The position numbers and the translations under genes were made by a program. This document shows, in pieces, positions 9 through 27,546 of a stretch of DNA of 64,000 bases. Each line of letters begins with the position of its first letter. Within the stretch, counting starts at the first letter, position 1. The stretch covers positions 26,742-90,741 of IMG/VR virus record IMGVR_UViG_3300015615_001076. One strand, 5' to 3'. The notes beneath the pieces are model-generated. The model saw nothing but the letters and a program-made list of their open reading frames with translations, was not told the origin of the DNA and searched no databases. The stretch is from a virus. Taxonomy: Duplodnaviria; Heunggongvirae; Uroviricota; Caudoviricetes.

Positions 9-977
9 TCATGCTGGCACTCCTTTCATGTGAGAGATCGTCGAGAGCAGATGCCTGACAGCCGCAGCGGCTTCGTCTTCCGACACGCCCTCTGTCTCGG
101 TGAGGTACTTCGTCATCGTCGCCAGATCGGGCTTGGCGACTTTCCCCGCTTGCAATCCTTTGAGCAGACCGGTAATCAATTTCTTCGTGGAACCGTGTAG
201 TGATTCCTGCCGTAAGGCGCCGCCACCCGCTAAGGCCGCATGATCGGTACCGTACCCAGCCGTCACAGACTTTTCGATGGTTTCGTATTCCAACGTGGAC
301 CCTGGACCGATCCAGGACTTGGCGAAGACATCGAGCGGCATCGTCGTGACACCCGGCACCGTGGGGTTCACCGGCTCACGCGAAAAGCCAATGTTGTTCC
401 AATAGACCTTCTTGATGGCTCGCACGGGCGCCGATTCCCCTTTCGGGAGAATCACGCCACGATCGCGGACATGCCCACCGACTGAGGGATACCAGGGCAT
501 GGGGGGATGGACTTCAGTGAGACTGGACCAAAACTTGTTGGCCTCTTCGGCCATGTCACCGGAGCCTTGGTAAATGAACCCTTTGACGAAGGTCCGCCCG
601 CGCTCGAATCGCACATCGGTCGGTCGTCCAATTTCGTAGCGCCGGGGATTGTCGAGCTTGCGGGCATACCCAATAATCGTCAGATGATCGATATCGAAGT
701 TGCCTTTAGCGAGAAAGTAGTCGGCGGATTCCTTCAGGGCTTCACGCAGGACGCGCTCTCCGTCAAGGTCGGTGCCTTCATTCGACGGTTCACAAAAAAT
801 GACGCGCTGCCCGGCTTCGACCTTGGGGGTCGCTTTCAGGAAAACGTGGGGAAGCGAAATAGCCGACTGGCACTCATGCACCATACGGCGCACGATAGAA
901 CGAAACCCGTGCACCATGAGCGCCATGCGCGACAGATGCACCGGACGCGACACGTGCGACACAAGACCGCTTGACAA
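9..977 (-). CDS. hypothetical protein (322 aa); N-terminus possibly over-extended
   Basis: Long minus-strand ORF in frame with the rest of the element. No motif I can name. Confidence 0.4.
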   Translation of the reverse strand: MSSGLVSHVSRPVHLSRMALMVHGFRSIVRRMVHECQSAISLPHVFLKATPKVEAGQRVIFCEPSNEGTDLDGERVLREALKESADYFLAKGNFDIDHLTIIGYARKLDNPRRYEIGRPTDVRFERGRTFVKGFIYQGSGDMAEEANKFWSSLTEVHPPMPWYPSVGGHVRDRGVILPKGESAPVRAIKKVYWNNIGFSREPVNPTVPGVTTMPLDVFAKSWIGPGSTLEYETIEKSVTAGYGTDHAALAGGGALRQESLHGSTKKLITGLLKGLQAGKVAKPDLATMTKYLTETEGVSEDEAAAAVRHLLSTISHMKGVPA

Positions 978-2891: not shown

Positions 2892-3232
2892 GATTCATCC
2901 CCCTGGTTGAGCGTCCCGACGACATCACAGTGCCGGCGGTCGAGTAAGAGTTGTCGATACCGTTCTTCCTCATCTAGCGTTCGAAGACCGTGCTGTTCCA
3001 GTTGCTCGATGCTTTGATGGACACCCCGACGCATGCCGATCGCCGCGTCTCCAATCTGTGTCCGTGCAGTCTGGGCCTGTTGCAATTGGCCTTCAACCAG
3101 CGCCAAGGCCCGTAGGACCGCCTTGCGGGATTGATTCTCCTGCGGCTGGTCCTCCGGCATCGTCTCGTTCTCAGCGGTTGAGACATCCACATGTTCATCG
3201 TTCGTCTGATCGGCTGTTGTCTGTCCCGTCAT
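2888..3232 (-). CDS. hypothetical acidic protein upstream of the giant helicase gene
   Basis: The stop overlaps the start of 2529..2891 and its start overlaps the end of 3229..9660 (operon-like coupling). Confidence 0.4.
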   Translation of the reverse strand: MTGQTTADQTNDEHVDVSTAENETMPEDQPQENQSRKAVLRALALVEGQLQQAQTARTQIGDAAIGMRRGVHQSIEQLEQHGLRTLDEEERYRQLLLDRRHCDVVGTLNQGDES

Positions 3233-6200
3233 GCTGCCACCGGCTCTTTCGTGTGCTCCGTGAGCAGCGAGGCGGCAATCCCACTGTCCTCCAGACCTTC
3301 ATAGGGCGATGTGAGCATTTCTCGCAAGCCAGACTTCCGTTCCAACCGAGCTTTGTTTTTCTGATCCAAGAGTGAATCGGTTTGCAAGGTCACGACGTCG
3401 ACATCGTGCTTTTGTCCCAGTCGATGAATCCGTCCCGTCCGCTGCCACCACGTCTTGGCTGTGGACGGAATATCAAAATGGATCACAAACCGCCCGCGTT
3501 GCGCATTCATGCCAGTTGCGCCGGCGTCCGACACCACCAGGATATCGGCTTCTGCCTCACGGCCGTTTGGTGGCCGAAACATGAGCTGCTTCCGGCCTTT
3601 TTCTTTGGCCGAATCTGATCCAGTGATGGTGACGACTCGATGACCCTGGGCTTTCAATTGTTTGGTCAATTGCGCCACCGCCTCTCGATGATGCGCGAAG
3701 ATCAACCCCGGCTTGCCTTCCTCCCGATAGCGATTCACTCGCGCAATCGTCTCTTTCATCTTCGCGTTGTGCTCCGGATCTGCCAGATTGACGACTCGCG
3801 ACAGCGCCGTATCTCGCAGGGTGCCCAGGGCCTCATTGAGCCGTGCGCCCATCTCGTCATCCTTCGTGCCGGTAAAGCTCGCTGGGCTGAGTTGCTTTAG
3901 CGCGGAAAGATCAACGGTCCCATCTCGTCGCGCTTGTCGCGCCTTGCGATAAGCCGTCATGACCCCCTCATAATCCGCCTTCTGTTTTTCGGACAAGGCC
4001 ACCGGCACATCCTGCTTGATCGCTTGCACACCAGGATCGACGCGCCCAGGGAACAGCCGACCCATCAACTCTCGCTTGAGGGAGTCCCGTGCCGCCGTCG
4101 TATTGATACCGTACTTCGCCATGAACTCCTCTCGATCGGCATACCGCTCTGGATCGACTTTGCGAAGGGCGTCATGCAACTCAGACACGTCATTCTTGAT
4201 GGGGTCTGCACTAGCCGACACGTAGTAGGGCGTTTCGGCTCCCAACGCATCCAGGACGTTCGCAAAAAGACTGTCGGTCTTCCCTTGACGGTTCAGTGCA
4301 TCATGGGCTTCATCCACATTCAGGTAGTCCCAATGAATGCCTTCTTTCTGCATCGTCTCTTGCAAGGCAACCCGCCGTTGTTTGTCCGTCAAACCTTGAA
4401 ACCGTTGACTCATCTCCTCTTCAGGGATGCCCGCCTGTTTGGCCATCAGATGCACCAGATCATCGCGTAAGGCTTGATGCGTCACGACCGCAAAATGATG
4501 CTTTGGGTCTTTGTAGGCCGCGATGCGTTCATCTCGTGGTGCCCCGGCATTCGCCCACCAGGAATACTGCCCTGGCTCCAACACATTGGCGGCTTCCGCT
4601 CCGAATTGCCGTTGCACGATCGACGGGACCGCAAAGATCCCGCGTCTCACCTTGCCTTGGCTATGCAGATGGGTGAAGGCTCCCAAGGATATCGCTGTCT
4701 TTCCTGACCCTGTTCCCAAGGCCCCAATCATGCGTTTGTTGTGCTCAATCAGCTTTATCAGTCGTTGCTGATTGGCGAATTTTCCGTCCATGCGCATGTC
4801 GGGAATCAACGTCACCGGTTCATTCGGACTAAAGTTTCTGGCGACTTGAGGAAGGGCGGCTGTCAGTTGTTGCTCGACGGTATCCCCCAGTGTCCAGCGT
4901 TCATCGGCTTTCAACGTCGGATGTTTTGGATCCTCTTGCTGAGCTAAGAACATGGAGACTTGGTTTTGATCAGCGATCGCGGCGAGTTCACGAGCGCGAT
5001 CGAGCTTGTCTTTCACGCTTCCGGCCGCATACTTGCCTTCGGTCCGATTGCGTAACTGATCGACCGCTTGTCGTTGTTCGGCTAATCGCGTCTCACGCGC
5101 TTGCGGGTCGACAGCATCCAAATGGGCGATGTTCCCTCGCAGAACCGTCCGTCCCAGTTTCAATGGCTGCTTGGTAACCTTCTTATACTGATCCGCAAAG
5201 GCCTGGACCGCGTGGCTCTTCAGATGATCCTGCATGGCGCCATAGGCACCCTCTCGACCACGATGCAGTTCCACATACTTGTCCCACGACAGTCCGGCCT
5301 GCTGAGCCTGGTCCAACAGCGCTTGCCGCTGGCCATGCCAGGCCTGCCACTCCGGATTCTCTTGGACGCCAAAGAGCCCATCGGATTCTTTGGGCGGTTC
5401 TGGCCCTAAGGCTTCCAGCTGTTCTTTGACCATCCCCTGCTGTTCCGGCTTGGCAAACGTCTGCTCGAAATGGTGTCGAAGAATCGTTTGATCCTGTGGG
5501 CTCAAGTCTCCAATCTTCTTAAAGGCCACCATCCGGCGAGGGTCTTCCGCCATGACGCGATGCAGCGCTTCATAGGTCGGCTTCGCTGTCGGGTCAATCT
5601 GTTGGGCATGCAATGGTGCCGCATCCGGCCCGTACTTCTTCGTCACATATTCCTCGGCCATCCGCCTGAACGTGTCGGTGTGCGCCTCAGCGCGTAATGG
5701 TTTCCCGGTCGCATCCCGTAGTGGGGCTATCCGATCAATCGCCTCGAAATAGGCTTGCCGCTGTCCGTCCGGGACCTGATTCACCAGATCATGAGACAAG
5801 AGGCTGGAATAGATCTGGGCCACCGGCACCCCATCGGCCATGTGATTGCCGATATAGTCCTTCAAGTCCTCTTCAATCAGACCGTGGCTCGACACGGAGA
5901 ACGGCTTGGCAAACGATACCGCTTGTTCATTCGGGTCGGTATACGATGATTGGGGACGACGGGCAAACCCCGCCGGTAACCAGCCCTCTTCATCATGTTC
6001 ACCATTGAGCACCGCTCGTGTGTACTCGTAGCGCTTCGCTTCGTCCGGATCGATGCGGCGCGTGAGTTTCGGAAGGCCACTCTTGTTGATCGTCGCGTAC
6101 CGGGTTTTCCCGTCTGATTCGATCGCATAGTCTTCTTTCGAAAGGCCAATGGCTCGCAACTGCTTGATCGCCGTGTCGTTGTTGATCGATCCAAGCGACA

Positions 6201-9200
6201 CCTGCATGCCCTGAACCGGTCCGGCTTGCAGCGCATACTGCAAGGCGGCGACCGCCTCCATTTCACCCAGTGTGGACCCCAGCAACGACCGCGCTTCCTG
6301 CAACATCTCCACGCGCTTGGCGTTCAACTCACTGGCCACCGCCAGTTCTGTTGGTGAGTCAACCGTCCCGAGTTGAATCTCGCGGGCTTGCTCGCTGAGT
6401 TCCTGAGCCCGTGCAATGGCTTCTCGTGAGGCGTCGACATGATTGGATTGATGATAGGCCGCCAATCGTTCCGTAAACCCCTTCACATCGTCTGGCGCGA
6501 GCTTCGTATGCATCGCGTAGGCTACGGCTTGCGCAGCCCCAGCCGTCCCCAACACCGCGATAACATCATGGGGAATGACGTCTTGTCCGGTCAGCCCTAA
6601 CGACGCTCTGGTGAGCGCGTTCGTGGCACCGACCTGAATATGCCGGTCCAACGATTCCGCATGTTTGTCTGGGTCGTCGAGCGACAACGGCGTTTCGACC
6701 GTGCGGAGAAAGGACTTGCACAGATCTTGACGTTCGCGTTCTTTGGCGTCAGCTTCCAATTCAGCGATGAGCTCACTGGACAGAACCGGCTTCGCGTCGA
6801 TCACGTACGACTTCGCCACCGCCTCTTTCCCGGCCTTGATTGCCTTCGCTTGTTTGCTGGTTTGCGCCTGGACTTGTTGGACCTGTTTGGCCACGGTCAA
6901 GAGTGCCATCGCCTTTGACGGCACAACCGCCTTTGTATTCCGTTGGGTCGTCGCCACCTTGCCGGAGGCCTCGGCCTGTTGGACTTCCTCACGGATCTTA
7001 GCCATTGATTCTTGTAAGCGTTGGCCGGCCTCTGCCGAGCCTGGAGCGACGTCGGTCTTGCGTTGCGCCTTCAGATCCTCCACCTCTTGTTCTAATTCGT
7101 CCTCGGTAAGTCCTGCGGCATGGGCCTTTTCCGCATATCGCGTCCGGTATCCTTTCCCTGTTTCCGTCTGCGTCCCAGTCAGATCGGTCAATCCCAAGAC
7201 ATCCGGTTCGGTTCGATGAATCGAGAGTTCCCCAAGCTTGGCTTCCGCTCGCGCATCGAGGTCATCCATGATCCGTTCACGGGTCTGTTGCACGACGTCC
7301 ATGGCATCCCGCAGCAATTGCCGGTGATGCTTGGCAATCAATACACCCTTCGCGGCGTCACTCAGCCCTTGGAGCTGTTCTGGCTTGAGGTCAATATCTT
7401 CCCAGCCCATGGACTTCGCCACATGATCGATCAGCGTCCGTTCATGCTGCTGCCGCTGGGTTTTCAGTTCAGCTAAGGCCTTCTTTTTGGGCTCATAGGT
7501 GCCGGCTTCCTTGTCCTGCTTGATCCGCTCTTTGTCGGATGCTTTCTTGGCCTTGGCCCGATCCGTGGCCTGTTGTGTGTACTCTTCCTGGCTCTTCACG
7601 TTGGTCAGCTTGAGGTAATTGAGTTTGCCTCCGGCACCGCCGATGACATGATAGGTGCCCTTGTCGGTCTTCGACTCGCGGATGAGGATCGGCTGGCCTT
7701 CGCCATTCCCGCCATGTACCGTAATCCACCGACACGACTCGCCAGGGCCACAGGAGGATTTCTTGAAGGTCATGCGCAATGCGGGTCTGCCTGGACACCG
7801 GCCATCCGTCCGCTCTTCCTCACCACAGATCGCACAACGCGGGTGCCCGTTTGGATGCGTCCAGCGGGCAGCTTTGAAGGCATGCAGGTTGCGGCCTTCT
7901 TGCGTCGACCGTTCACGGATCGCCTTCGTCTCTTCATCATAGTCAGCCTGATCAGCAGCAGAGAGTGATTTGATCATGGCAGGCTTATCTTTAGTGGCTA
8001 GCACCTTGCGCTTGAACTCTTCCATTGGAAGAGTATGCATCGATCCAAAAAAGCGCGGGTCGGTGTAATTGTCGAGAAACGCTTGCTTCGCCTCTTCAGC
8101 CGAATCAAACCCCAGCATTGTCTTATCTTCGTCCCATCGCTTGAAGTCAGGGACAGCCATGGCATGGATCACATACGCATGCGTGGCGTCAGGATTGGGG
8201 CCAAGGAAGCAATCGACATGGTCTCCGTCTACACCTTGGGTACCCCTAATGTACCCATAGGCATGCTGCATCTTGATTTCTCCGGACTCGCCCTTGCGGT
8301 TCGTCCACCGGCGGATGCTGCCTTTCCGGTTTTCGATGGTGATCTCAAGCCCTTGGAAGGTAGTCTTGTAGTCGATCGGATGGCCGCCGCCATGGATGCC
8401 TTTGAAAACCATGGACATTGATGACTTCGAAAGGCGATCGTCTACCGGTTTTTTTGGGGGGCTTCTGTTGAACTCCTGAATAGCGCGTGTTAGACTCTCA
8501 ATGAGCCCGGTGGGCCGGTTGGAAGTCGGGGGCTTCGGCCCTGTCTGCGTCCGCCACGTAATGGACATCGGGCTCGACTCTTCAACGTTCACTGCCTCGA
8601 CCGTATAAATTCGTCTTCCCTGCTCCTGATTCACATACTCTTTAACGGTGAGTTTCACCATCCTCGCTTGTGAACCAACACGCATGGCGGTAAAGAGCCG
8701 ATAGACGGTGCCCATATTGGCATTTGCATCACGGTCAGGTCGCTGCTCGCCGACTCTGGCGTCAGCGAAGAGTCCATCAAGATTCGCGACCGCCAAGGCA
8801 TGCTCATGCGGTGTACTTGACTTGCTCACTGCACTTTCGCTCAGCATCTTGTCGAGCGACTGGCGCGACACCGTGGCGGTAATGCCATCCCCGCTTGTGA
8901 GTGTGCGACCTTGGAACGTACGCGCTATCGTTCTGGCTTCGCTAAACGTGTAGGTCGGGCGAAGTTGCTGTGACTCGATCACCCGTTGCCAATGATCTGG
9001 TGCGGTGAGGGGGGCTGGCGCATCATCCGTATCCGGACGTCTAGACGTCTTTCGCTCATGTTCTCTTACAAATGTGCCATCTTTTTTCGTATACGCTCGC
9101 ACTCTGGCCTTGAGAAAAGCGTGGTGTACCTGTTCGATCGCCTTCCGGAGTTCGTCAGACTCATCATCCCCGACCGTCGCCGCCCGCCAGATCGCGAGCT

Positions 9201-9660
9201 TCAATGCATCCTCTCCGCCAATCGGGAGGACGGATCCAGACGGGGAAAGCTTCGGTGTACCGTCCGGATGCCGATCCACTGTATGCAAGCCGATCAACGC
9301 TAACTTCTGGGCGAGAAACTCATGCGGGGTCTTATACAGTCCACCTGACTGATAGCCGGCTTCCTTCGCAAGATCCTGGACAATACCCTTCGTGTCGTGA
9401 TCTTCCCACAGTAACGGGTGTGGCCAATCGCGTTCCTTCTTCAGCCGTTGAGCGGTTTGGACCATGGCAGTCGAACGCTGATAGGCTTCTTCCGGAGTCG
9501 CCGTCGCAGGACCAACTTTGCGATGAGCGACATAGGGATGCACCACGGCGACGTGACCGTTCGAAGTCTGCCGAACACTGCCAGCCACCTGTACCGCTTG
9601 CTCCTGTTCGAAGCGTAGCGGCAGCGCCTTACGGATGGAACGCAGCACCCACGTCAGCAT
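3229..9660 (-). CDS. giant polyvalent protein (2143 aa) with SNF2/DEAD-like helicase domain
   Basis: Walker A GTGSGKT, DEAH box (LNVDEAHDA), helicase motif VI QRTGRIHRLGQ near the C-terminus. A zinc ribbon lies mid-protein (CAICGEE...CPGRP...CGPGESC). The KDGTFV motif sits at about residue 190. Size and architecture match injected polyvalent phage proteins. Confidence 0.85.
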   Translation of the reverse strand: MLTWVLRSIRKALPLRFEQEQAVQVAGSVRQTSNGHVAVVHPYVAHRKVGPATATPEEAYQRSTAMVQTAQRLKKERDWPHPLLWEDHDTKGIVQDLAKEAGYQSGGLYKTPHEFLAQKLALIGLHTVDRHPDGTPKLSPSGSVLPIGGEDALKLAIWRAATVGDDESDELRKAIEQVHHAFLKARVRAYTKKDGTFVREHERKTSRRPDTDDAPAPLTAPDHWQRVIESQQLRPTYTFSEARTIARTFQGRTLTSGDGITATVSRQSLDKMLSESAVSKSSTPHEHALAVANLDGLFADARVGEQRPDRDANANMGTVYRLFTAMRVGSQARMVKLTVKEYVNQEQGRRIYTVEAVNVEESSPMSITWRTQTGPKPPTSNRPTGLIESLTRAIQEFNRSPPKKPVDDRLSKSSMSMVFKGIHGGGHPIDYKTTFQGLEITIENRKGSIRRWTNRKGESGEIKMQHAYGYIRGTQGVDGDHVDCFLGPNPDATHAYVIHAMAVPDFKRWDEDKTMLGFDSAEEAKQAFLDNYTDPRFFGSMHTLPMEEFKRKVLATKDKPAMIKSLSAADQADYDEETKAIRERSTQEGRNLHAFKAARWTHPNGHPRCAICGEEERTDGRCPGRPALRMTFKKSSCGPGESCRWITVHGGNGEGQPILIRESKTDKGTYHVIGGAGGKLNYLKLTNVKSQEEYTQQATDRAKAKKASDKERIKQDKEAGTYEPKKKALAELKTQRQQHERTLIDHVAKSMGWEDIDLKPEQLQGLSDAAKGVLIAKHHRQLLRDAMDVVQQTRERIMDDLDARAEAKLGELSIHRTEPDVLGLTDLTGTQTETGKGYRTRYAEKAHAAGLTEDELEQEVEDLKAQRKTDVAPGSAEAGQRLQESMAKIREEVQQAEASGKVATTQRNTKAVVPSKAMALLTVAKQVQQVQAQTSKQAKAIKAGKEAVAKSYVIDAKPVLSSELIAELEADAKERERQDLCKSFLRTVETPLSLDDPDKHAESLDRHIQVGATNALTRASLGLTGQDVIPHDVIAVLGTAGAAQAVAYAMHTKLAPDDVKGFTERLAAYHQSNHVDASREAIARAQELSEQAREIQLGTVDSPTELAVASELNAKRVEMLQEARSLLGSTLGEMEAVAALQYALQAGPVQGMQVSLGSINNDTAIKQLRAIGLSKEDYAIESDGKTRYATINKSGLPKLTRRIDPDEAKRYEYTRAVLNGEHDEEGWLPAGFARRPQSSYTDPNEQAVSFAKPFSVSSHGLIEEDLKDYIGNHMADGVPVAQIYSSLLSHDLVNQVPDGQRQAYFEAIDRIAPLRDATGKPLRAEAHTDTFRRMAEEYVTKKYGPDAAPLHAQQIDPTAKPTYEALHRVMAEDPRRMVAFKKIGDLSPQDQTILRHHFEQTFAKPEQQGMVKEQLEALGPEPPKESDGLFGVQENPEWQAWHGQRQALLDQAQQAGLSWDKYVELHRGREGAYGAMQDHLKSHAVQAFADQYKKVTKQPLKLGRTVLRGNIAHLDAVDPQARETRLAEQRQAVDQLRNRTEGKYAAGSVKDKLDRARELAAIADQNQVSMFLAQQEDPKHPTLKADERWTLGDTVEQQLTAALPQVARNFSPNEPVTLIPDMRMDGKFANQQRLIKLIEHNKRMIGALGTGSGKTAISLGAFTHLHSQGKVRRGIFAVPSIVQRQFGAEAANVLEPGQYSWWANAGAPRDERIAAYKDPKHHFAVVTHQALRDDLVHLMAKQAGIPEEEMSQRFQGLTDKQRRVALQETMQKEGIHWDYLNVDEAHDALNRQGKTDSLFANVLDALGAETPYYVSASADPIKNDVSELHDALRKVDPERYADREEFMAKYGINTTAARDSLKRELMGRLFPGRVDPGVQAIKQDVPVALSEKQKADYEGVMTAYRKARQARRDGTVDLSALKQLSPASFTGTKDDEMGARLNEALGTLRDTALSRVVNLADPEHNAKMKETIARVNRYREEGKPGLIFAHHREAVAQLTKQLKAQGHRVVTITGSDSAKEKGRKQLMFRPPNGREAEADILVVSDAGATGMNAQRGRFVIHFDIPSTAKTWWQRTGRIHRLGQKHDVDVVTLQTDSLLDQKNKARLERKSGLREMLTSPYEGLEDSGIAASLLTEHTKEPVAA

Positions 9661-9680
9661 CGTCGCGCTCCTGGCACGTC

Positions 9681-9944
9681 TTAGGAGTCCCTATCAAGAT
9701 AGGAATCAAGATGCGGATCATCAAAGCGCTTAGCATCGTCCTCTGAGGCGTTTACGTCGTCATGCACGCAGGCTAATGGGTTTCCGGCTATCGCTTCCGC
9801 ACAAATCCCCTGGATCTTTGCAAGACGATCAGCAACATACCAATACTGAGGTGTCAGAAATCCTTCTTCGCGAATCGTCTCAATTTCGTATTCGAGCCGT
9901 TTCAGAACGCGGGCAATCTGTTGTTTAGTGAGTGTCATGTCCAT
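9681..9944 (-). CDS. small acidic hypothetical protein
   Basis: 87 aa with a strongly acidic C-terminus (DDVNASEDDAKRFDDPHLDSYLDRDS). Lies between the two giant genes. Confidence 0.4.
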   Translation of the reverse strand: MDMTLTKQQIARVLKRLEYEIETIREEGFLTPQYWYVADRLAKIQGICAEAIAGNPLACVHDDVNASEDDAKRFDDPHLDSYLDRDS

Positions 9945-10097
9945 ACTCGTCCTCCTCGCGATCCATGCAGCCTACGCAGAACAGAGGGATGATCTCGTCG
10001 TCACGATTGGTAGGGCCGAGCCCCATCGCCTTTTGTACCACTACCGCCGGACGCAGCCCGGCCTTTATTTCACGGCCACAGGCCTGACACTGCGTGC

Positions 10098-10454
10098 TCA
10101 TATCCCTCCAGCATCATCGTCATAAAGATGGTAGGGTTCACCCGAATCATGGTAATACGCATCCGGTGAATTCGGCTCGAACGTCGCTCGGTATTGCTGT
10201 TCGTGAATGGCTTCGGCCAAGAGCGCCGCATCGGTCTCAGCCGGTAAGTGAGCCTCCGCTTCCAAATCGGTATAGGCACCCAACAGATAGAGCTGATCTG
10301 GCCCATAGCCGTGCTCTTTTAAGAGCCGTTTCACCGCCCACCAATACACACCGAAATCACGGTAGCGGCGCGGTTCCTCCTGTAGCAGCTGCACGATAGC
10401 TTCGAGCACCGTGTCGACGTCGGGGACTGGTTCAATCGGGTCCTCGGATTCCAT
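10098..10454 (-). CDS. small highly acidic hypothetical protein (possible DNA mimic / chaperone)
   Basis: 118 aa with roughly 27 D/E against 8 K/R. The start abuts the stop of the 1840-aa gene. Confidence 0.45.
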   Translation of the reverse strand: MESEDPIEPVPDVDTVLEAIVQLLQEEPRRYRDFGVYWWAVKRLLKEHGYGPDQLYLLGAYTDLEAEAHLPAETDAALLAEAIHEQQYRATFEPNSPDAYYHDSGEPYHLYDDDAGGI

Positions 10455-10455
10455 G

Positions 10456-13400
10456 TCATCCCGTCTTTCCGAACGTCATCGGTAGCCGACTCTTGATGAC
10501 CGTCTCAAGTGCGGTCATCGGATCCTTTTTCATCGTGTGGTAGTCCGTCATCTTGTCAAGCAGCGTATGTTTCTCCTCCCACCCGATGACGTCTCGGAGT
10601 GCGTCTTGATAATAGGTGCTGGTATACCGTTTTTTGGCCTGGCGCGATGAATAGTTCCTGCCTGCTCCAAACGAGGAATTTTTCTGCTTCTCCTCCCACG
10701 CCAGCTTGACCAACGGTTCGAGATGTCGCTGGATCGGAAGGAGATAGGTCGCCTTCTCAGCGGCGGCATCTCCAGGAAAGACCTTCGCTGGCCTCCCGGC
10801 TTCGTTCAGCGCCCACAAGGCTTCCATCGTCTGCTCCGGGTCCTGATAATCCGGCTTCTCTTTCATCCGTGCACGCAACGCGTGCTGAATCTGATCCGCA
10901 TGCTGTGCAATCAACGAGGCCGGGAACATCCGGAGATGAGACGGCTGGCGGATCTTCGGAATCATTGCGGTCAGCTCATCGGCGTGGCTCACATCCATCG
11001 CGGACGAGAGTCCGCTTGCCAGGTCGTCGATGCGCACAGCGGTCGTACGGTCGTTTCTGTCATACGGTGGAGGCAGTACCCCGATTTCACGAAGCGTGAC
11101 CGAGGCTTTCGGCACATCCACGCTCACCACCCGCCACTGGCTCTCGCCCTTGGTCTTGGTAAAGAGCGGGCGATCATCCCCACCCGACATGGCAAGCGTG
11201 GCCCCCTCATACAACGGCACCCCTTGCGGCGACAGCAGCATCGGCTTGTCGATCGAGAGCATGGCCTTCTGTTCAAAATGCTCATCCTGATGGAGGTCGC
11301 GGGTCATGCGCTCCATGCGCTGTTTGAGTAAGTGCGCGGTCTTGGTCTCTTTGTTCAATAACGCCCCATAGGTCTGGCGGAGCTTCTGCAAGTGACCGAA
11401 CTGGCTGGCGGCTGCAGCCTTCTTAACCGCCCGATACTTCTCTAACTGAGCCTCTTTGTTCTTCGCCAGTTCCGCACGCGCCTGATCCGGATCATCAGCC
11501 ATCATCACGAGAAAGTCATCATGGCTCAGGCTCCCCTCAGCCGCCAAGTTCTCAATCCGATCCGCCCCATGCCAGAGCTGATCCATCCATTCTTTTTTCC
11601 CGGCGATGGTCTGATACCGGTACCCATCGAACGATTTCTTGGCGAGATAGGTATGGACGCGTACCGCCTCCAGCTTGTTCCCTTGGCGAATCCCCCGTCC
11701 GTTCCGCTGTTGCATGCTGGACGGCTCCCAGGGAAGGTCCATATGATGGATGTCGCTCGTCAGTTTTTGCAGGTTGACGCCTTCGCCCATGGTGGCCGTA
11801 TTCCCGATCACGACCCGCAATTTGCCTTGCACATAGTCGTCGGCCACACTATGGCGCTTCGCGCTGTCTTGCGCCACCTGTGCATTGATGATGCCGATTT
11901 GCTCCGCTGGCACACCGGCTTTGATAAGCTTGTCCTTGATCTTTTGATGCACCGCGATCTGATCGGCAAAGATGATCTGCCCACCGTCTTGGAGCATATC
12001 CTTGACCGTCTTGGACACGGCGTCATACTTGGGGCTGTCGAAATCCGTGACGCCTTTGACCCACTCCCCATCGAGTAAGCTCAAGTCCATGGAGGCCTTA
12101 CCCATCTTATCCATGAGGGTAAAGACATGGGCCTCACCCGTCTCTTTCGCCTTGGCGTCGAGGGCCTTGTTGCGAATCGTCGCGTAGACCTGGTGTTGAG
12201 CCTTCGTCATGTCGATGTAATGTTCCTGCACATCCTTCGTGGGGATTTTGAGTCCAACGTCTTCGGCTGTTTTCCGATAGATGTAGCGGCCCATGATGGA
12301 CCGCAGTTCGTTCATGTTCTTGAAGCCCGTGACCACCGACGACATCACAATCTCGCCGTTCGTATCGAGTACCGGCTTGATGGCCGTCTCACAGTAGCGG
12401 TCAATGAAGTCTTCGGCATGTCGGATGCCGCGCTGTGAGAACGCTTCCGGCGCGATATGCGCCAGCATGGAATAGACTTCCAAGGGGGAATTTTTGGTAG
12501 GGGTCGCTGTTAATGCAAACACCCCTCGACCGTTATTGTTCTCACGCACGAAGCGGCATTTATGCTCCATATCCATCGCCCGCTTGGCAAAACCAGATCC
12601 GCCGAGAAACTTGGGTTTTCCGCCGAAGCGACTGCGGGCCTCGTACAGGTTTTTATAGCTATGAAATTCATCTCCTATGATGCAATCCACCCCCAGATCA
12701 TTGAAGTAGATCGCATTGGTCCTCGACCGGAAGTCTTTGTTGGCCATCGCTTGCTGGTACTGTTCGCGGATCTCCCGCACTTCCCGGCGCGTGCCTTCTT
12801 CGAGTTGATCGGCCCGTTGCACCCAGAAATCCGACTCGATGTATTCCCCGCGTTTGATCGGGTCGAGCGTGATTTCGTTGAAGGCCGGTTGCGTCACCAA
12901 CACATAATCAAAGGACTCTTGCGTGAGCTGATGCCACTTCTTGTGGCGTTCCTTCGGATCGTCTGCCGTCGCTTTCAACTTCCCATCTTTCCCTCGGCTG
13001 TGTGTTTCGCCAATGACCAATACCTTCGACCCCGGCATAAATGCCTCGATTTCCGAGACCCAGTTGGCGGTAAGCGATTTCGGCACCACGATAATGGGAC
13101 GCTGAATCTTGCCGTCCTGCTTCAGCGACTTGACGAGGGCAATGGCCATCGGCGTCTTCCCGACCCCAACGTCATAACTGATAATCCCCTTCCCCTCTTC
13201 CTTCGCCCAGCGCAGCGCCGGATGCTGATAGGCATTGAGCGCCCGATCGGGATTCCAGCCCGGTATCTTCACCGGCTGATCGCCATACCGCTTGGGTTTG
13301 TAGCTGTTATAGAGTCGGTTGTAGGTGTCCTCGATCGACGACCGATGGGGAGAGGTCGCCAGCCAATTCTTAAAGTCTTCCTCACGCTCAGGGATACGCT

Positions 13401-15978
13401 TCCATTCATGCTCGGTCATGCGCAGGCGGTTCAGGTAGTCGGTGTAGACGCTATCGAGGTACGCGTTCCCGCCTATGTTCTTGATGGTATAGACGCCATC
13501 GTGAAACGTGACGGCATAGTTTGGCGGGCGTGTGTCGCTCCCATGCTGATGCGCGATCGCGTTGAAATAGTCGGCTAAGACGGTCGTCGGAATCCATCCG
13601 GCGCGTAACGAGACTTCGAACTCCTCCAAGGTTTTTGGCTGAATGGCCTCGTCCAACCACCCGACTTGCTCTTGGAGCTTGTGCTTGAGCGGCCCTTCCG
13701 GAGTGCGCTCCAATGCCGCCGCAACGGCATCGCGCTTGGGGTACAACTCGCCCGACGTGAAATCTTCCCGCAAGACCCATTCTGTGCCGTCCACGTTGAC
13801 CGCATAGCGGTCCGACCCCATCAGGCGTTGGAGGATTTCGTTCCGGACCTCGTCGGTCGTCGCGCCATCCCAGCTCACTGCAAGCTGGTCCACCGTGACG
13901 AATCGCCCGTCCCCGTCCAGCAAGCGCCGCACCACCGCGTCAAAATCTTTGGTATCCAACCCTTGGTGCGTGCTTGAAAAGAGTGTGCCGTCAACCAGAT
14001 CGGACGGCTTCCCGTTGGCGTTGAGCGCCACAATCAGCGGATAGAATCGTGGATCCCGCTCCGCCAGCGCGACCAAGGTCTTATCTTGCAGCGGGAGACC
14101 GAATTCCTTGGCAAACTCCAGCACCTCGTCTTTGATGAGCCGGTCGGACGCCTGTCTGCCTTGCGCCGCTGCATCGGCCAGGTATTTCAGTCGTTGCCCC
14201 AAATCCAGCGCACGACCTTCCTTGCTGGTCGGAGCGTACTGCAGGTCGTCGAGGTCCTCAGCACGGTGCCATCGACGGGGATTCCCTTGGAGCACATATA
14301 AGGTCCCGTTCACCAGCTTGGTGGTGCCGTCTGGTAAGTCCGGATAGGGATTCTTCCTCGACGCGCCATTCAGGCGCTTCACGAAATCAGGCTGCTCGTC
14401 GAAGTGTGCGGCAATCTCCTCAAAGGTCTTGGGACCATGCGTCGATTGATCGAGCGGCGACAGCGCAATCGCCGCCGGCACCCCATCCATTTCACCCGAC
14501 ACATCCAGACCGCCGCGCCAATTGGCTTGGGCGGTGCCGTGGAGATAGCCCCGTCCACTAACCTCCAGAATCTGCCCGTCCAGCCACGGACGGTCCCAAA
14601 CGCCCAACGCTCGCAAATCCACTGGCTCATCGATCACACCGAGTGCTCCGGCGACTGCCTGTGGCCGTTTTCGCAGCACCAAGACATCGGTGACCACGCC
14701 GGTTCCTGAATGCTTGAAGGCCGTATTGGGCATCCGATGCACACCCAGGACTTCGGCTTTTTTCATCACCTGTTCGCGAAACGATCGGCTGGATGGATTG
14801 GTCGAAAGGCCATGGGGCACGACGAGACAGACCACGCCTCCATCTTTGGTCTTATCCAAGGCGGTATCAACAAAATACTCTTCGGCGGTTCCGAGATCGG
14901 GCTTGTCCTGGGCGGCAATCGCGCCCCGCACGCCAAAGGGCACATTGCCGATCACGGCGTCGTATTTGATCGGATCAGCCGTAACGAAATGCTCCAACGC
15001 CAGGTTCACGACTGCATCATCCGGATGCAGAACCGCATTGATCGCTGAGGAAGTCCGGTCCCATTCCACGGCGGTCATTTTAATCCCGGCTGGCTTGGTT
15101 TCCTGGAAAACCCCACTCCCTGCACACGGCTCCAGCACATGCCCCGTAGAGAGTCCGAGCGTGGACAAGATCTTCCACATCGCTGCCGCGACGGCAGGCG
15201 GCGTGTAGTATTCGTTCAGACTGTCCCCGATGCCGCCGTTCCCTGAATAGGCGGCGAGGGTCTTCCGCCAATCCTTCGCAGTTCGATGCAGTGTGCGGAT
15301 TTGCTCTTGTGCGGTGAGCGGTCGGTTGTTCTCTCCGGTCACCCGATCCTTGACCTGATCAATGAGTGCGACGGCCTGCGCATTGGCTTTCTTCCGTGTG
15401 CTCGCGGACCAACCGGATTGTGCCCCAAACGCAGGCAGGTGTGTTTCAATCAAGGCCCAGTCGTCAGCGTAGCTCAAGCCAACGTCAGATTTGTTTGTAG
15501 TGGGTTCCTTCTCATCCAGGTTGGCGGTTGCCCGCACAGAATCTGTGAGATCGAGCAATCCTACAGGTATCTGCATCACATTGCCGTTTGCCAATTTTAC
15601 GGGATATGACGACGGACCGATCTTGGGAGTTTCGATGGGGCCATCGATCACACCGTTCATGAAGGGCTTGCCAATCTTTGCAATGACGGAAGCTCCAACC
15701 GGAAAAACAGAACCCTGTTTATCTGTGCCGTCAGGCACCTCTCTCGTACTTGATTCAGTGACGCGAATCTCTTCCCGTTTTTGTGCCACATCTTGTCGCA
15801 CGGTCGCTCGTTCTGCAGGCGGCGTGTCGAGCATGGTGAACAGCCCGAGCTGTGAGGCGGGTTCGCGCTTGTCCAGATGCTCTGGCACAAAAGTGCCCTG
15901 TTTGGTCGTGTAGGCACTCACCCGTCGGGCTTTAAAGAACAGTCGCAGTCGATCAAGCATGGAGAGATTCCGCCTCAT
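10456..15978 (-). CDS. polyvalent protein (1840 aa): N6-adenine-type DNA methyltransferase fused to SNF2-family helicase
   Basis: N-terminal KDGTFV motif. MTase motif I LEPCAGSGVF and motif IV GNVPFG. SNF2 motifs DEFH, LTATPTKNSPLEVYSMLAHI and QQRNGRGIRQGN. Architecture resembles DarB-like antirestriction proteins. Confidence 0.85.
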   Translation of the reverse strand: MRRNLSMLDRLRLFFKARRVSAYTTKQGTFVPEHLDKREPASQLGLFTMLDTPPAERATVRQDVAQKREEIRVTESSTREVPDGTDKQGSVFPVGASVIAKIGKPFMNGVIDGPIETPKIGPSSYPVKLANGNVMQIPVGLLDLTDSVRATANLDEKEPTTNKSDVGLSYADDWALIETHLPAFGAQSGWSASTRKKANAQAVALIDQVKDRVTGENNRPLTAQEQIRTLHRTAKDWRKTLAAYSGNGGIGDSLNEYYTPPAVAAAMWKILSTLGLSTGHVLEPCAGSGVFQETKPAGIKMTAVEWDRTSSAINAVLHPDDAVVNLALEHFVTADPIKYDAVIGNVPFGVRGAIAAQDKPDLGTAEEYFVDTALDKTKDGGVVCLVVPHGLSTNPSSRSFREQVMKKAEVLGVHRMPNTAFKHSGTGVVTDVLVLRKRPQAVAGALGVIDEPVDLRALGVWDRPWLDGQILEVSGRGYLHGTAQANWRGGLDVSGEMDGVPAAIALSPLDQSTHGPKTFEEIAAHFDEQPDFVKRLNGASRKNPYPDLPDGTTKLVNGTLYVLQGNPRRWHRAEDLDDLQYAPTSKEGRALDLGQRLKYLADAAAQGRQASDRLIKDEVLEFAKEFGLPLQDKTLVALAERDPRFYPLIVALNANGKPSDLVDGTLFSSTHQGLDTKDFDAVVRRLLDGDGRFVTVDQLAVSWDGATTDEVRNEILQRLMGSDRYAVNVDGTEWVLREDFTSGELYPKRDAVAAALERTPEGPLKHKLQEQVGWLDEAIQPKTLEEFEVSLRAGWIPTTVLADYFNAIAHQHGSDTRPPNYAVTFHDGVYTIKNIGGNAYLDSVYTDYLNRLRMTEHEWKRIPEREEDFKNWLATSPHRSSIEDTYNRLYNSYKPKRYGDQPVKIPGWNPDRALNAYQHPALRWAKEEGKGIISYDVGVGKTPMAIALVKSLKQDGKIQRPIIVVPKSLTANWVSEIEAFMPGSKVLVIGETHSRGKDGKLKATADDPKERHKKWHQLTQESFDYVLVTQPAFNEITLDPIKRGEYIESDFWVQRADQLEEGTRREVREIREQYQQAMANKDFRSRTNAIYFNDLGVDCIIGDEFHSYKNLYEARSRFGGKPKFLGGSGFAKRAMDMEHKCRFVRENNNGRGVFALTATPTKNSPLEVYSMLAHIAPEAFSQRGIRHAEDFIDRYCETAIKPVLDTNGEIVMSSVVTGFKNMNELRSIMGRYIYRKTAEDVGLKIPTKDVQEHYIDMTKAQHQVYATIRNKALDAKAKETGEAHVFTLMDKMGKASMDLSLLDGEWVKGVTDFDSPKYDAVSKTVKDMLQDGGQIIFADQIAVHQKIKDKLIKAGVPAEQIGIINAQVAQDSAKRHSVADDYVQGKLRVVIGNTATMGEGVNLQKLTSDIHHMDLPWEPSSMQQRNGRGIRQGNKLEAVRVHTYLAKKSFDGYRYQTIAGKKEWMDQLWHGADRIENLAAEGSLSHDDFLVMMADDPDQARAELAKNKEAQLEKYRAVKKAAAASQFGHLQKLRQTYGALLNKETKTAHLLKQRMERMTRDLHQDEHFEQKAMLSIDKPMLLSPQGVPLYEGATLAMSGGDDRPLFTKTKGESQWRVVSVDVPKASVTLREIGVLPPPYDRNDRTTAVRIDDLASGLSSAMDVSHADELTAMIPKIRQPSHLRMFPASLIAQHADQIQHALRARMKEKPDYQDPEQTMEALWALNEAGRPAKVFPGDAAAEKATYLLPIQRHLEPLVKLAWEEKQKNSSFGAGRNYSSRQAKKRYTSTYYQDALRDVIGWEEKHTLLDKMTDYHTMKKDPMTALETVIKSRLPMTFGKTG

Positions 15979-17314
15979 GGATCGAAGCGGTTAAGCGATC
16001 GAGGTAGGCCTGATGCGTATCGCGTTTGGCGAGCAGCACGCCGCGTTCAGCGGTGCCAAGGTCCGGAGACGTCAGGTCCCAGTCCAGCGTCTCAATGGAT
16101 TTGAGCAGCGCGGTGTGAACCTGATAGGCACGGTGAAGCGGTGTTACGCCCTGGGACGGGCGAGATGGGAGTCCAAGGCTTGGAGGATCTTGTCGTTCCG
16201 GGTTTCCTCCATCTGATCGAACGCGTGCGCGGTCTGTTCCGAGAGGGGCACGGTTCCCGTCGAGGGCTTTGCCAAAGCTGGGCGGTTCGCTGCGCTCCTG
16301 AAGAGCAGCTTGCTCATTTTTTTCAACATCGGTGCTGTACCTCCGCCAGTGCGTGACCCGTGGATCCTGCTTGACCTGATTGTAGGTCTCTTCCGGTCTT
16401 CCGTCAACGGTCTTGGCGATGTAGCTGGGAGGGACAAACCGACCAGACCGGCGAAACCGCTGGACCGCCCGCGCACAGGATTGTTCAATCGGGAGATGGG
16501 CATACAGAATCGAGATTTCATAGCCGAGCATATGAAACCGCTCGACCATCCTTTTGACCTTGCCATCATTCGCCCCGGTGATATCGAGTAAGACATGGTG
16601 GTTGGCCTGCAACGCCTTGGGCAGAAGTTGGCCTTCGGCGATATCGCTGGATTCTTCATGGACCAAGCCGGCATTGCGGCCGTTGTATTCCGGCAGCCGC
16701 TCTTTCACATCATCGGCATTGATCACCGTGAACTCCACGCCCAGTTCTTTGGCCGCCGGCTGAAGTGCCGAGGTCTTCCCGGACGCTGGGGCACCTAACA
16801 GAATGACCGCGTGGGGACGTTGCCCTTCAGAGACAGCCGCTCGCGGATTGAACATGGCCCCCAGAATACTGTCATGGAGCTGCGCCCGTTCGGGATCATA
16901 GGTGCCGTCCGATTGGCGATAGAGATGATGCGTCGATGTCCCGGCTGACACTTCACGCATCGCTTGCTGGATATCTGGTTCCTGCTCGATCGTATGCAGC
17001 CAGGCTTCTAACATCCCTGGCTTCGCTGGCTCGACCTCGGCAACCGGGGGCCGTTCGGTTTGCAGGGGGTCGTCGTGATGAGCAGATTGTTCTTGGTCTA
17101 CCGTCTTCTTCGGGTCTTTCGCCTGTGCGAACTCTTGCTGCGCCTTGGTGCGTGAGTCCTCATGCTCCTGGACCATCGCCGTCTTACCGGACTTGGACCG
17201 GCGCTGATAGGTCTTCACATGCGATTTCACGAAGGTCCCGTCCTTACGTCGATAGCCCGACACATAGTCCTTCCCAAACACCATGCGGAGCATCGACCGG
17301 GCCATCTTCATCAT
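15953..17314 (-). CDS. Zeta-toxin-like P-loop kinase domain protein with polyvalent-type N-terminal motif
   Basis: N-terminal 'GYRRKDGTFVKSHV' motif. Walker A LLGAPASGKTS, then 'DITGAN' and 'LYAHLPIEQSCARAVQRF' segments typical of the Zeta-toxin / AAA_33 kinase fold. Confidence 0.6.
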   Translation of the reverse strand: MMKMARSMLRMVFGKDYVSGYRRKDGTFVKSHVKTYQRRSKSGKTAMVQEHEDSRTKAQQEFAQAKDPKKTVDQEQSAHHDDPLQTERPPVAEVEPAKPGMLEAWLHTIEQEPDIQQAMREVSAGTSTHHLYRQSDGTYDPERAQLHDSILGAMFNPRAAVSEGQRPHAVILLGAPASGKTSALQPAAKELGVEFTVINADDVKERLPEYNGRNAGLVHEESSDIAEGQLLPKALQANHHVLLDITGANDGKVKRMVERFHMLGYEISILYAHLPIEQSCARAVQRFRRSGRFVPPSYIAKTVDGRPEETYNQVKQDPRVTHWRRYSTDVEKNEQAALQERSEPPSFGKALDGNRAPLGTDRARVRSDGGNPERQDPPSLGLPSRPSQGVTPLHRAYQVHTALLKSIETLDWDLTSPDLGTAERGVLLAKRDTHQAYLDRLTASIHEAESLHA

Positions 17315-23667: not shown

Positions 23668-23668
23668 G

Positions 23669-26052: not shown

Positions 26053-26054
26053 AC

Positions 26055-26555
26055 TCACTCCTGCGTATAGAAGACCCGTCCGGAACACTGCACGGCTTGG
26101 GTCGTATTGACGTTCAACGGACTATTCGTACCGAGCGTGAACCAGGGGTCGGTGTCCTTCGGCAGCAACACGACACCGCCTTGCGCAAGATCGATCACAC
26201 CCATCATCGGGGTGACACCGTCACGGATCGAGACCGATTGGTCCCCGTTCGACCAAAGCAACAGCTTCCAGATGCGAATGATCTTTCCGGCAACGGCCGC
26301 GATGAGGATGTGATCCCCGGTCGTCGCAAAATTGATGGGGAGTTCCAAGAGCCCGCTTGCGGCCTGTCGAACCACCTGTCCATATTCCGTACTCGACGGC
26401 TGCGTATTCTTCACTCGCGCCAAGGCGACTGGATCAACCGGATCCGCCGCCACCTGGCGCGATCGATGGACGACCTGCCCACTGACCGTCAACACATCCT
26501 GGTCTATTTTTTTCCCGGTGCTATCCGGAGGGACCTGAATGTAGCCGTCAGACAT
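26055..26555 (-). CDS. hypothetical protein (166 aa)
   Basis: ORF coupled to the downstream secreted protein. No signal peptide. Confidence 0.4.
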   Translation of the reverse strand: MSDGYIQVPPDSTGKKIDQDVLTVSGQVVHRSRQVAADPVDPVALARVKNTQPSSTEYGQVVRQAASGLLELPINFATTGDHILIAAVAGKIIRIWKLLLWSNGDQSVSIRDGVTPMMGVIDLAQGGVVLLPKDTDPWFTLGTNSPLNVNTTQAVQCSGRVFYTQE

Positions 26556-27297: not shown

Positions 27298-27546
27298 TTA
27301 CTGTTCTCCGATATACCGCCCGTTGACGACACTGAGACACTTCCCGTTCTGACAGCGCACGCTATCGGCTCCGCTCACGAAATCCCATTCGACTCGCGTC
27401 ATGGACGGCGGAACAGCCTCGGTGTGGACTGGCGGCGATGGCTGTCTCTGTTGCTGACGATACGCCCCGATCAGGGCATAGAGCGCGAGATCCAAGCGCG
27501 TCGTACGCATCAGCCAGCACCAGGCCAAGACGACACGCGTCGTCAT
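27298..27546 (-). CDS. hypothetical protein
   Basis: 82-aa ORF whose start overlaps the MuF-like gene stop. Confidence 0.3.
   Translation of the reverse strand: MTTRVVLAWCWLMRTTRLDLALYALIGAYRQQQRQPSPPVHTEAVPPSMTRVEWDFVSGADSVRCQNGKCLSVVNGRYIGEQ

Follow-up and report, generated by a model that had tools for sequence, protein, structure and literature searches.

A hairpin-bearing peptide tag shared by neighbouring polyvalent proteins, a candidate virion-loading signal of one phage head lineage

How a phage chooses the proteins that travel in its capsid is known for few models, among them the T4 internal proteins, P1 Dar, MuF fusions and N4 vRNAP. The T4 signal comprises about 10 amino acids (aa) and is removed at L/I-x-E sites. 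Encapsulin cargo-loading peptides, which are usually C-terminal, about 10 aa long and of a GSL-type motif, sit with a flexible linker on unrelated enzymes and dock inside an HK97-fold shell. The capsid-targeting sequence (CTS) of T4 IPIII loads unrelated proteins into the prohead (Mullaney and Black 1996, cited in PMC9024508), and the prohead protease removes the T4 targeting sequences (PMC9024508). P1 DarB and Ulx are head proteins that are ejected with the DNA (PMC9024508; PMC12810830); the first 30 aa of DarB are enough to bring a reporter into capsids and Ulx, itself a head protein, "aids DarB localization" (PMC9024508), while Hdf and DarA are packaged first (PMC12810830). Here we analyze a 64-kb stretch of phage DNA (the window; part of IMG/VR record IMGVR_UViG_3300015615_001076), in which three adjacent minus-strand genes encode large proteins, A, B and C, that share a short peptide element, the tag (Table 1). 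A sequence-only reading of this DNA had labeled the three proteins as a helicase, a methyltransferase-helicase and a Zeta-like kinase, and had proposed that the shared peptide is a common targeting, packaging or processing signal. The three open reading frames (ORFs) are present and Pfam agrees with the labels; we lean towards reading the tag as a virion-loading signal.

The element common to A, B and C can be written hhhF-K-A-x-V-x-x-Y-x-[RK]-x-x-G-T-x-V-x-x-H. It is found at aa 181–204 of A (AFLKARVRAYTKKDGTFVREHERK), aa 14–38 of B (FFKARRVSAYTTKQGTFVPEHLDKR) and aa 12–39 of C (VFGKDYVSGYRRKDGTFVKSHVKTYQRR), with K, V, Y, K, G, T, F, V and H identical in the three copies. The sequence-only reading gave it as FKARVxAYTKKDGTFVxxH in all three proteins, at the N-terminus in two and about 190 aa in for the third. 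The motif is indeed shared and those copies lie where they were placed, but the literal string occurs only in A, with B reading KQGTFV and C reading GKDYVSGYRRKDGTFV, and A also carries an N-terminal copy. This copy, A1, had been overlooked, as had a second hairpin in C that overlaps the first (hairpin 1, aa 15–32, KDYVSGYRRKDGTFVKSH; hairpin 2, aa 30–55, KSHVKTYQRRSKSGKTAMVQEHEDSR). A1 reads VLRSIRKA..VQVAGSVRQTSNGHVAVVHPYVAHRK and resembles copies X2 and X3 of the related locus L001 as well as the "long-type" copies in L082, L094, L149 and L141; it was used in building the long-type profile, which also detects canonical copies, and its membership rests on alignment and not on an independent score. 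With A1 counted, all three proteins start with a tag copy.

In pairwise BLASTP comparisons the motif was the top match of each pair (2e-5 for C/B, 7e-4 for C/A and 8e-4 for B/A), outranking in the B/A pair even the helicase domain that the two proteins share. A profile built from 116 segments of other proteins, without window sequences, and searched against the six-frame translation of the window recovered the canonical copies A2 (E = 1.7e-12) and B1 (E = 4e-8) and the tag of C (E = 1.6e-5), the next best match having an E of 0.5. Both sets of scores lie well above chance, which rules out a chance resemblance or a generic low-complexity match. Most third codon positions have diverged between the DNA sequences of the three copies, with the residues retained; conservation is therefore at the protein level, with selection on the peptide, and a recent DNA duplication or gene conversion of the copies is ruled out by the same differences.

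A comparison of about 130 copies delimits the phage-type tag as an element of about 40–50 aa, made up of a hydrophobic leader, a basic β-hairpin and a flexible linker that tethers the cargo. The leader reads [P]-M-x-K-[SA] and then continues with four or five hydrophobic residues, and the core reads h-h-K-[AS]-[HR]-[VI]-x-x-[YF]-T-[RK]-K-D-G-T-[FVY]-V-x-[EAP]-H, often continued by [DE]-D-K-R-x-A-A-x-P and then by a variable Pro/Ala/Lys-rich linker. Across 17 divergent copies Y, G, V and H are invariant and T nearly so. For the N-terminal 45 aa of C, AlphaFold2 (AF2) with a small alignment predicts a β-hairpin with a mean pLDDT of 95 at aa 21–30. In the full-length AF2 model of C, the tag hairpins stand free of the cargo; after them come a disordered linker (aa 51–88) and a folded Zeta core (aa 90–330, pLDDT 82–94), which matches PF06414 at 1.5e-20 and conserves the Walker A motif G-x-P-A-S-G-K-T. 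The picture drawn by these predictions is that of a tethered peptide module. A second disordered segment (aa 331–389) parts the kinase core from the end of C (aa 392–452; window 15953–16140), which is predicted to form a two-helix hairpin (pLDDT 84–96) and is kept in homologues.

Protein B provides the most direct comparison with a described system. It matches the PHROG family of DarB-like antirestriction proteins at 2e-117 and P1 DarB itself at 1e-127 in phmmer and at 7e-50, plus further segments, in BLASTP, and the darB-ulx gene order of P1 is also the order of B and a Ulx-like gene in the window (against P1 Ulx, BLASTP 2e-9 and phmmer 1.5e-6). The BLASTP homology between B and DarB starts at aa 47 of DarB and aa 195 of B; hence the tag of B is at the position of the DarB targeting sequence, ahead of the first helix that the two proteins conserve, the tag and linker (aa 1–194) standing in place of DarB aa 1–46 with their 30-aa capsid-targeting sequence. 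Homology between the two signals was considered and rejected, as the DarB N-terminus (MNKLSMGVFRCSSVSEILKYIRAITSHRAP) lacks the hairpin motif. The two also differ in reach: no sharing of the DarB signal among many cargo families was met with in the P1 papers cited here, whereas the tag occurs on three neighbors and in hundreds of clusters. When P1 DarA, DdrA and DdrB (Hdf not included) were compared with the six-frame window by phmmer, nothing was found at E≤0.01, so another loading route would be needed.

Protein A is laid out as a tag copy, a domain of about 120 aa, a second tag copy, an LPD3 module (aa 241–352) and then enzymes, namely an InPase (aa 432–552) and an SNF2/DEAD helicase (aa 1630–2082) in Pfam, with PHROGs matches to DNA helicase and DarB-like proteins. 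A and B thus each combine domains of the polyvalent repertoire (LPD3, InPase and SNF2/DEAD in A; N6_Mtase and SNF2 in B). The survey of phage-type polyvalent proteins (Iyer et al. 2017; PMC5512222) describes the same LPD3 and InPase domains, the methylase-helicase dyad and the portal-terminase context, and tag carriers elsewhere hold ART-PolyVal, PBECR3 and RadC domains of polyvalent type. Term searches of that survey returned no element like the tag, and no Pfam LPD family matches it. The effectors fused to MuF (Mu gp30 / SPP1 gp7) or portal domains described there follow the same logic, a head-incorporation module joined to variable effector domains. Here, by contrast, a mini-tag would act as the loader, and a gene of its own encodes the 363-aa minor head protein; in A, B and C Pfam detects neither a peptidase nor a MuF (PF04233) or portal (PF04860) domain. 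Like the T4 IPIII CTS, the tag is a short N-terminal peptide on unrelated proteins (A, B, C and about 65 other carriers) with a prohead protease in the same module; it differs from the T4 signal in its 40–50 aa, its predicted hairpin and its occurrence also internally and in several copies. With encapsulin peptides it has architecture in common, and no homology. By analogy, then, the tag may be functionally like the T4 and P1 targeting sequences and architecturally like the MuF/portal fusions, with sequence membership in none of them.

A profile search of 1.84 billion cluster representatives yielded 842 proteins at E≤1e-3, of which 61 reach E≤1e-10, and we sorted the top 145 new matches into two classes. 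The first is the phage type, 80 proteins in which about 65 copies are N-terminal and about 63 internal. The latter always lie at module starts, with at most four to five copies per protein, and about 25 of the roughly 63 keep the Met of the "P-M-x-K-[SA]" leader (counted from the listing of copies). Most members of this class have no Pfam domain; the cargo that could be named is diverse, comprising InPase (seven), ART-PolyVal (five), DUF6900 (four), PBECR3, LPD3, NUDIX, Acb1, Zeta, DMP19 and RadC. Searches for the tag in curated families were negative: Pfam at E≤10 with nine segments returned nothing relevant, NCBIfam nothing, and PHROGs run on whole A, B and C (tag segments not scanned separately) no family for the tag. 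A PDB profile search gave a best E of 0.56, which is spurious, and literature searches with KDGTFV and similar strings found no paper describing the tag. Some motif searches returned only proteins of at most 83 aa, an apparent length bias that makes them uninformative on large carriers.

The second class has only the hairpin core, in secreted or lipoprotein-like bacterial proteins. In one form a signal peptide is followed by V-x-V-x-G-Y-T-[RK]-K-D-G-T-Y-V-x-P-H-x-R-S-x-P-D-G-N..N-N-W-S..N-P-Y-T-G, often in tandem; in others the hairpin makes up the C-terminal tail of proteins of about 135 aa in Chryseobacterium, Pedobacter and Flavobacterium, or occurs in Ser-rich arrays, as in P0170, where five hairpins precede a Ser/Thr kinase. 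A large family of small secreted proteins of this class joins the signal peptide and the stretch up to R-S-x-P to D-N-[YW]-S-T-[KR]-G-N-x-N-P-Y-T-G, with related C-terminal tails and tandem arrays, and two of its proteins (L027 and L043) have a C-terminal HNH nuclease; for this family we found no Pfam or NCBIfam model and no family name or function. These bacterial proteins share the core Y-x-[RK]-x-D-G-T-x-V-x-x-H-x-R with the tag but have neither the M-x-K-hhhh-K-A-H leader nor the E-H-D-D-K-R tail; they are exported, often carry the hairpin in tandem or at the C-terminus, and are chromosomal, with no phage head genes in their flanks. Since so many secreted bacterial proteins have the core, the hairpin alone is not a capsid-specific signal. 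The hairpin is thus a more general module, and the leader and the acidic-basic tail mark the phage type.

The tag is kept in homologues of the window proteins. The only close relative in IMG/VR is L001/L081, whose portal and Zeta proteins are 57% and 45% identical to those of the window. Its DarB-like orthologue of B keeps the N-terminal tag as MNRLLIFLKTKVAGYMTQGGTWVDQHYDKR, and its 1617-aa polyvalent protein has four copies, one N-terminal, two of the long type at internal module starts and one immediately before a Zeta module; helicase and Zeta are parts of one fused protein in L001, whereas Zeta is the separate gene C in the window. The same DarB-like protein (L001:11314-18630) contains LAGLIDADG and HINT intein domains that have no counterpart in B. 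Homologues of C at ≥45% identity all have the tag, except for one N-terminally truncated sequence of 314 aa. Twelve homologues have K30, H32, Y36, R38, V48, E50, H51, D53 and R55 invariant, all nine residues falling within hairpin 2, and the linker that follows varies. Absence of the motif from homologues, which would have spoken against the sequence-only reading, is therefore not what is found. More remote Zeta homologues of C lack the tag; among them are fusions to MuF (PF04233, Phage_Mu_F; P0288, P0298, P0323 and P0335) and to a portal domain (PF04860; P0313). Other large virion-linked or Zeta-bearing proteins begin with a similar "M-x-K-hhhh-K-A" leader followed by different hairpin-like stretches (Table 1), for example MLVLAKAL..AGYVLIDGRWKK in gp129 of Yersinia phage fHe-Yen8-01, ..RLLIKADA..HWITVHPNG in the L017 helicase, and MAKLVLLLKAHRSGDLVPIKKQVTRSGKSFMQTVWV. 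These hint at a wider, more degenerate family of N-terminal leaders.

The phage-type tag is tied to one head lineage, that of Mecenats66, PHB04 and Dolphis-like phages. Searching 50,697 phage records by tblastn with the phage-type consensus matched only six cultured phages of about 90–95 kb: Pseudomonas phages Jeremy, Dolphis and Touem01, Bordetella phage PHB04, Yersinia phage fHe-Yen8-01 and Aeromonas phage ST4. A weak match in a Desulfofustis phage (E = 3) is probably spurious. The sequence-only reading had suggested comparing the motif with phage and conjugative-element proteins; phages gave the matches just listed, and 72,556 plasmids none that was significant (best E = 2). In this the tag differs from the conjugative-element branch of polyvalent proteins: up to 40% of the polyvalent proteins known, with domains of similar kinds, come from conjugative elements (PMC5512222). 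In the cultured phages the tag is carried by NUDIX hydrolases and by small or unknown proteins. The carriers of Jeremy, ST4 and fHe-Yen8-01 lie upstream of the terminase gene, next to a large ART polyvalent protein; that of PHB04 is located downstream of the terminase by a few kilobases, with no ART protein annotated across the stretch examined.

All nine independent phage-type loci whose flanks reach head genes (L001/L081, L010/L011, L015, L017, L019, L044, fHe-Yen8-01, PHB04 and ST4) encode at least one homologue of the head-module proteins of the window. Terminase, portal, the 363-aa protein and the head maturation protease were scored, not all of them visible at every locus: PHB04 and ST4 show the terminase only, and L017 the 363-aa protein and the protease only. 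Apart from L001/L081, portal identity to the window is 37–43% across these loci. The Jeremy flanks examined stop short of the head genes, and the Dolphis terminase is reported to group with those of PHB04 and Mecenats66 (PMC9503643). A scan starting from the portal found 206 portal relatives in IMG/VR; of 80 loci (1.0 Mb), 22 have the tag at most 10 kb from the portal gene, in every case on the same strand as the portal and for the most part at the start of an ORF. The GenBank record of fHe-Yen8-01 separates "particle associated protein" from "hypothetical protein", and its tag-bearing gp131 is annotated as particle associated, as are the 2146-aa ART polyvalent protein beside it, the portal and gp002.

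The position of the tagged genes within the head module is also shared. In the window the portal, the GpA-type terminase, the minor head protein and the head protease are encoded on the same strand, and the protease is 42% identical to gp003 of fHe-Yen8-01, a "head maturation protease". Homologues of the 363-aa protein adjoin the portal gene in L011, L015, L017, L019, L044 and fHe-Yen8-01, where the homologue is gp002. The gene lies where we take MuF to lie in Mu-like head modules; the protein has no Pfam, PHROG or PDB match, and no MuF signature or fold is detectable by sequence. It is named "putative minor head protein" in Mecenats66, whose genes run terminase, portal, two small genes, the 363-aa protein, a 1371-aa helicase, a small gene, prohead protease, one gene and major capsid protein (PMC9503643 supplement). 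Effector genes thus lie between the minor head protein and protease genes in the window, in Mecenats66 and in L017, whose helicase, encoded at that place, is 40% identical to A over 1500 aa.

Taken together, these observations lead us to favor, by a modest measure, the view that the tag is a virion-loading (capsid-targeting) signal of one phage lineage, defined by the Mecenats66/PHB04/Dolphis-like head module. This reading draws on the placement of the tag at N-termini or module starts, followed by a disordered linker; on its cargo of unrelated counter-defense enzymes; on its restriction to one head lineage, with no significant plasmid match; on the DarB/Ulx homology, with the tag at the place of the DarB targeting sequence; on the particle-associated annotation of gp131; on the MuF or portal fusions that remote homologues of C carry instead; on the effector genes lying between those for minor head protein and protease; and on conservation at the protein level and not at the DNA level. 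In the mechanism we propose, the tag would dock on a conserved head component during procapsid assembly, with the portal, the 363-aa minor head protein, a scaffold and the inner capsid wall as candidate partners; unrelated counter-defense enzymes, here A, B and C, would be enclosed and then ejected with the DNA. Internal copies would mark module starts and might add avidity or become N-termini after processing. We infer the packaging of A, B and C, the docking partner and any cleavage from the evidence above, within which the 363-aa protein is a candidate for that partner. A more ambitious version, in which leader and hairpin form a lineage-wide portable cargo-loading signal, the phage counterpart of encapsulin peptides, with a core that is an ancient module, is one that we put forward tentatively, as possible but slightly more doubtful than otherwise.

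Several points weigh against virion loading. The hairpin core recurs in bacterial proteins of secreted, lipoprotein-like or kinase-linked type, where it is often arrayed in tandem; and vertical descent with cassette shuffling could by themselves explain why the tag keeps to one lineage. The tag has no sequence similarity to the P1 DarB targeting sequence, and some particle-associated or head-module proteins, namely gp129, gp130 and gp133 of fHe-Yen8-01 and the L017 helicase, are without a canonical tag. One N-terminal signal would suffice for loading, and conserved internal copies need an extra assumption. The particle-associated label is an unpublished database annotation, no paper on fHe-Yen8-01 having been found, and A, B and C are putative virion proteins for which the evidence is indirect. 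The common targeting or packaging tag of the sequence-only reading is thus partly and indirectly supported by position, unrelated cargo, a single head lineage and the DarB/Ulx parallel.

The tag might instead act after injection, with its basic hairpin as a tether between effectors and either nucleic acid or a conserved host factor. In some proteins an adjacent QLxLF β-clamp motif would act jointly with it, so that the effectors gather at the replisome or on incoming DNA. The element is indeed basic (consensus net charge of about +6 by count), is followed in several carriers (P0001, L010) by AKP-rich, histone-H1-like tails, and comes in several copies per protein, which suits multivalent binding; the hairpin also occurs in bacterial proteins unrelated to capsids, including the secreted HNH nucleases L027 and L043. 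Directly after the tag, B has QLGLF, which fits what we take to be the bacterial β-clamp-binding consensus (QL[SD]LF or QLxLxL). In B, P0154, P0204, P0230, P0245 and ATI15667 of PHB04 (L077, aa 39–43) the spacing from the hairpin to a QL[SAG]LF-type motif behind it is constant, the motif taking the forms QLSLF, QMSLF and QLALF at +17 in P0154, P0230, P0245 and PHB04; in long-type copies it stands between leader and hairpin. A second motif, "TPD[LM]F", often comes after the pentapeptide, and L001:6464-11317 has QLSLF twice at aa 115–135. Yet QLxLF accompanies only 4 of 131 tag copies (compared with 0.45% of random 70-aa windows), and many cargo domains do not act on DNA (NUDIX, InPase, Acb1, ART and the Zeta kinase). 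A host-directed module, moreover, should spread with its cargo to conjugative elements and other lineages, whereas the tag is confined to one, and DNA binding alone is not known to bring a protein into a procapsid. On balance, action after injection appears unlikely.

If the tag were a processing or delimiter site, at which the head maturation protease or another peptidase divides a polyvalent precursor into modules that each start with M-x-K-[SA], the location of internal copies exactly at module boundaries, the helicase-to-Zeta fusion of L001 as against the separate gene C, and the nearness of a head maturation protease gene to the effector genes would all be accounted for. The Met retained in the leader of internal copies is also far above a background frequency that we assume to be about 2%. 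There are precedents in the removal of T4 targeting sequences and in the processing proposed for polyvalent proteins (PMC5512222), and cleavage is compatible with virion loading, so that the two could act together. However, no conserved cleavage-type motif can be defined, the Pro that often precedes the Met would be an uncommon residue at a cleaved bond, no cut is required for N-terminal copies, and A, B and C contain no peptidase domain. The retained Met may equally reflect recent gene fusions or internal translation starts; few internal copies come with DNA in which a Shine-Dalgarno sequence could be sought, and even true starts have weak sites. We regard a processing or delimiter role as quite unlikely. 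The boundary position, the fusion and fission of modules between relatives and the confinement to one lineage would also fit a tag with no biochemical role of its own, a cassette boundary or fusion scar that is inherited with module shuffling or promotes it. Against this stand the residues kept while third codon positions differ freely, the invariant Y, G, V and H of 17 copies, the 842 clusters at E≤1e-3, the hairpin that AF2 predicts with high confidence, and the nine invariant residues of C, which fall within the tag while the linker varies; we consider such a scar very improbable.

The large ORFs of the window are nearly all on the minus strand, and its genes include, besides the head-module genes, an SbcCD-like pair. 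A protein identical to C (P0272), the only database copy of C, is encoded on a 719,510-bp JGI contig; as this contig is of chromosome size, the window is probably a prophage. One homologue of C, at 51% identity, comes from a metagenome-assembled genome of Nitrospirota. Searches of the region at near-identity DNA level against cultured phages and plasmids gave no match; whole A or whole B as single query for related loci found no relatives, and C found one close relative only, L001. The terminase appears to be interrupted by an intein-like insert, and its alignment with the L011 terminase is broken from about aa 251 to about aa 607. The ORF that directly follows the portal gene encodes 142 aa resembling staphylococcal nuclease, and this would be a fitting place for a virion-associated nuclease. 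Four consecutive ORFs located between the tagged effectors and the minor head protein gene all have signal-peptide-like N-termini and, as sole annotation, weak PHROG "tail protein" matches; exported proteins inside a head module are unexpected.

Table 1. Coordinates of the tagged genes, tag copies and neighboring genes in the window, with sets of related proteins elsewhere.
Feature	Position	Strand	Basis or remark
Protein A, 2143-aa polyvalent protein	3229..9660	-	ORF, Pfam
Protein B, 1840-aa DarB-like methyltransferase-helicase	10456..15978	-	Pfam N6_Mtase + SNF2
Protein C, 453-aa Zeta-toxin-like P-loop kinase	15953..17314	-	Pfam Zeta domain, aa 162–316
Tag copy A1, divergent long type (A aa 1–48)	9517..9660	-	MLTWVLRSIRKALPLRFEQEQAVQVAGSVRQTSNGHVAVVHPYVAHRK
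Tag copy A2 (A aa 171–204)	9049..9150	-	LRKAIEQVHHAFLKARVRAYTKKDGTFVREHERK; directly upstream of LPD3 module
Tag copy B1 (B aa 1–38)	15865..15978	-	MRRNLSMLDRLRLFFKARRVSAYTTKQGTFVPEHLDKR
Tag of C (aa 1–55)	17150..17314	-	Leader MMKMARSMLRMVF, two overlapping hairpins
QLGLF, directly after tag (B aa 43–47)	15838..15852	-	Fits QL[SD]LF
Ulx-like protein, 118 aa	10098..10454	-	PHROG Ulx-like anti-restriction, 1.4e-17; immediately downstream of B
Head maturation protease homologue	9..977	-	PHROG head maturation protease, 1.3e-23; downstream of tagged effector genes
363-aa conserved "minor head protein"	27543..28634	-	Homologues adjoin portal gene in lineage
Portal protein of lineage	29710..31554	-	Pfam Phage_portal
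GpA-type terminase with intein-like insertion	31831..35052	-	Pfam GpA_ATPase + weak Intein_splicing match
Staphylococcal-nuclease-like protein, 142 aa	29270-29698	-	PF00565, 7e-10
Four consecutive ORFs (386, 426, 403, 933 aa)	24928-26088, 23669-24949, 22504-23715, 19772-22573	-	
Leader-like proteins	fHe-Yen8-01 gp129 (L075:2092-8532), L017:5415-9965, P0305, P0328, P0329, P0333		
Small secreted hairpin family members	L012, L014, L016, L018, L020-L074; P0011-P0099; P0139 and others		

Capsid-targeting signals as such are already known; what appears new here, judging from the sequences compared, is one recognizable peptide that marks many cargo families across a lineage. If the virion-loading reading is true, such a tag would make injected phage proteins identifiable from sequence and would flag 842 protein clusters as candidate first-wave anti-defense effectors, among them Acb1, NUDIX, InPase, ART and DarB-like enzymes and many domains of unknown function. 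It would also offer a testable docking interaction in an understudied head module and a compact tag for engineered cargo in phages of Pseudomonas, Yersinia, Aeromonas, Bordetella and Morganella. Should the tag act after injection instead, it would still be a new short module linking many counter-defense enzymes. If leader and hairpin together are the portable loading signal that we tentatively propose, the tag would define the whole packed and injected protein set of Mecenats66/PHB04-like phages and their prophage relatives; by itself the motif would pick out hundreds of injected counter-defense effectors, most of them without a known domain, and would serve as a transferable handle for bringing foreign proteins into such virions; and the hairpin core would go back to an ancient binding module that secreted proteins of bacteria use as well.

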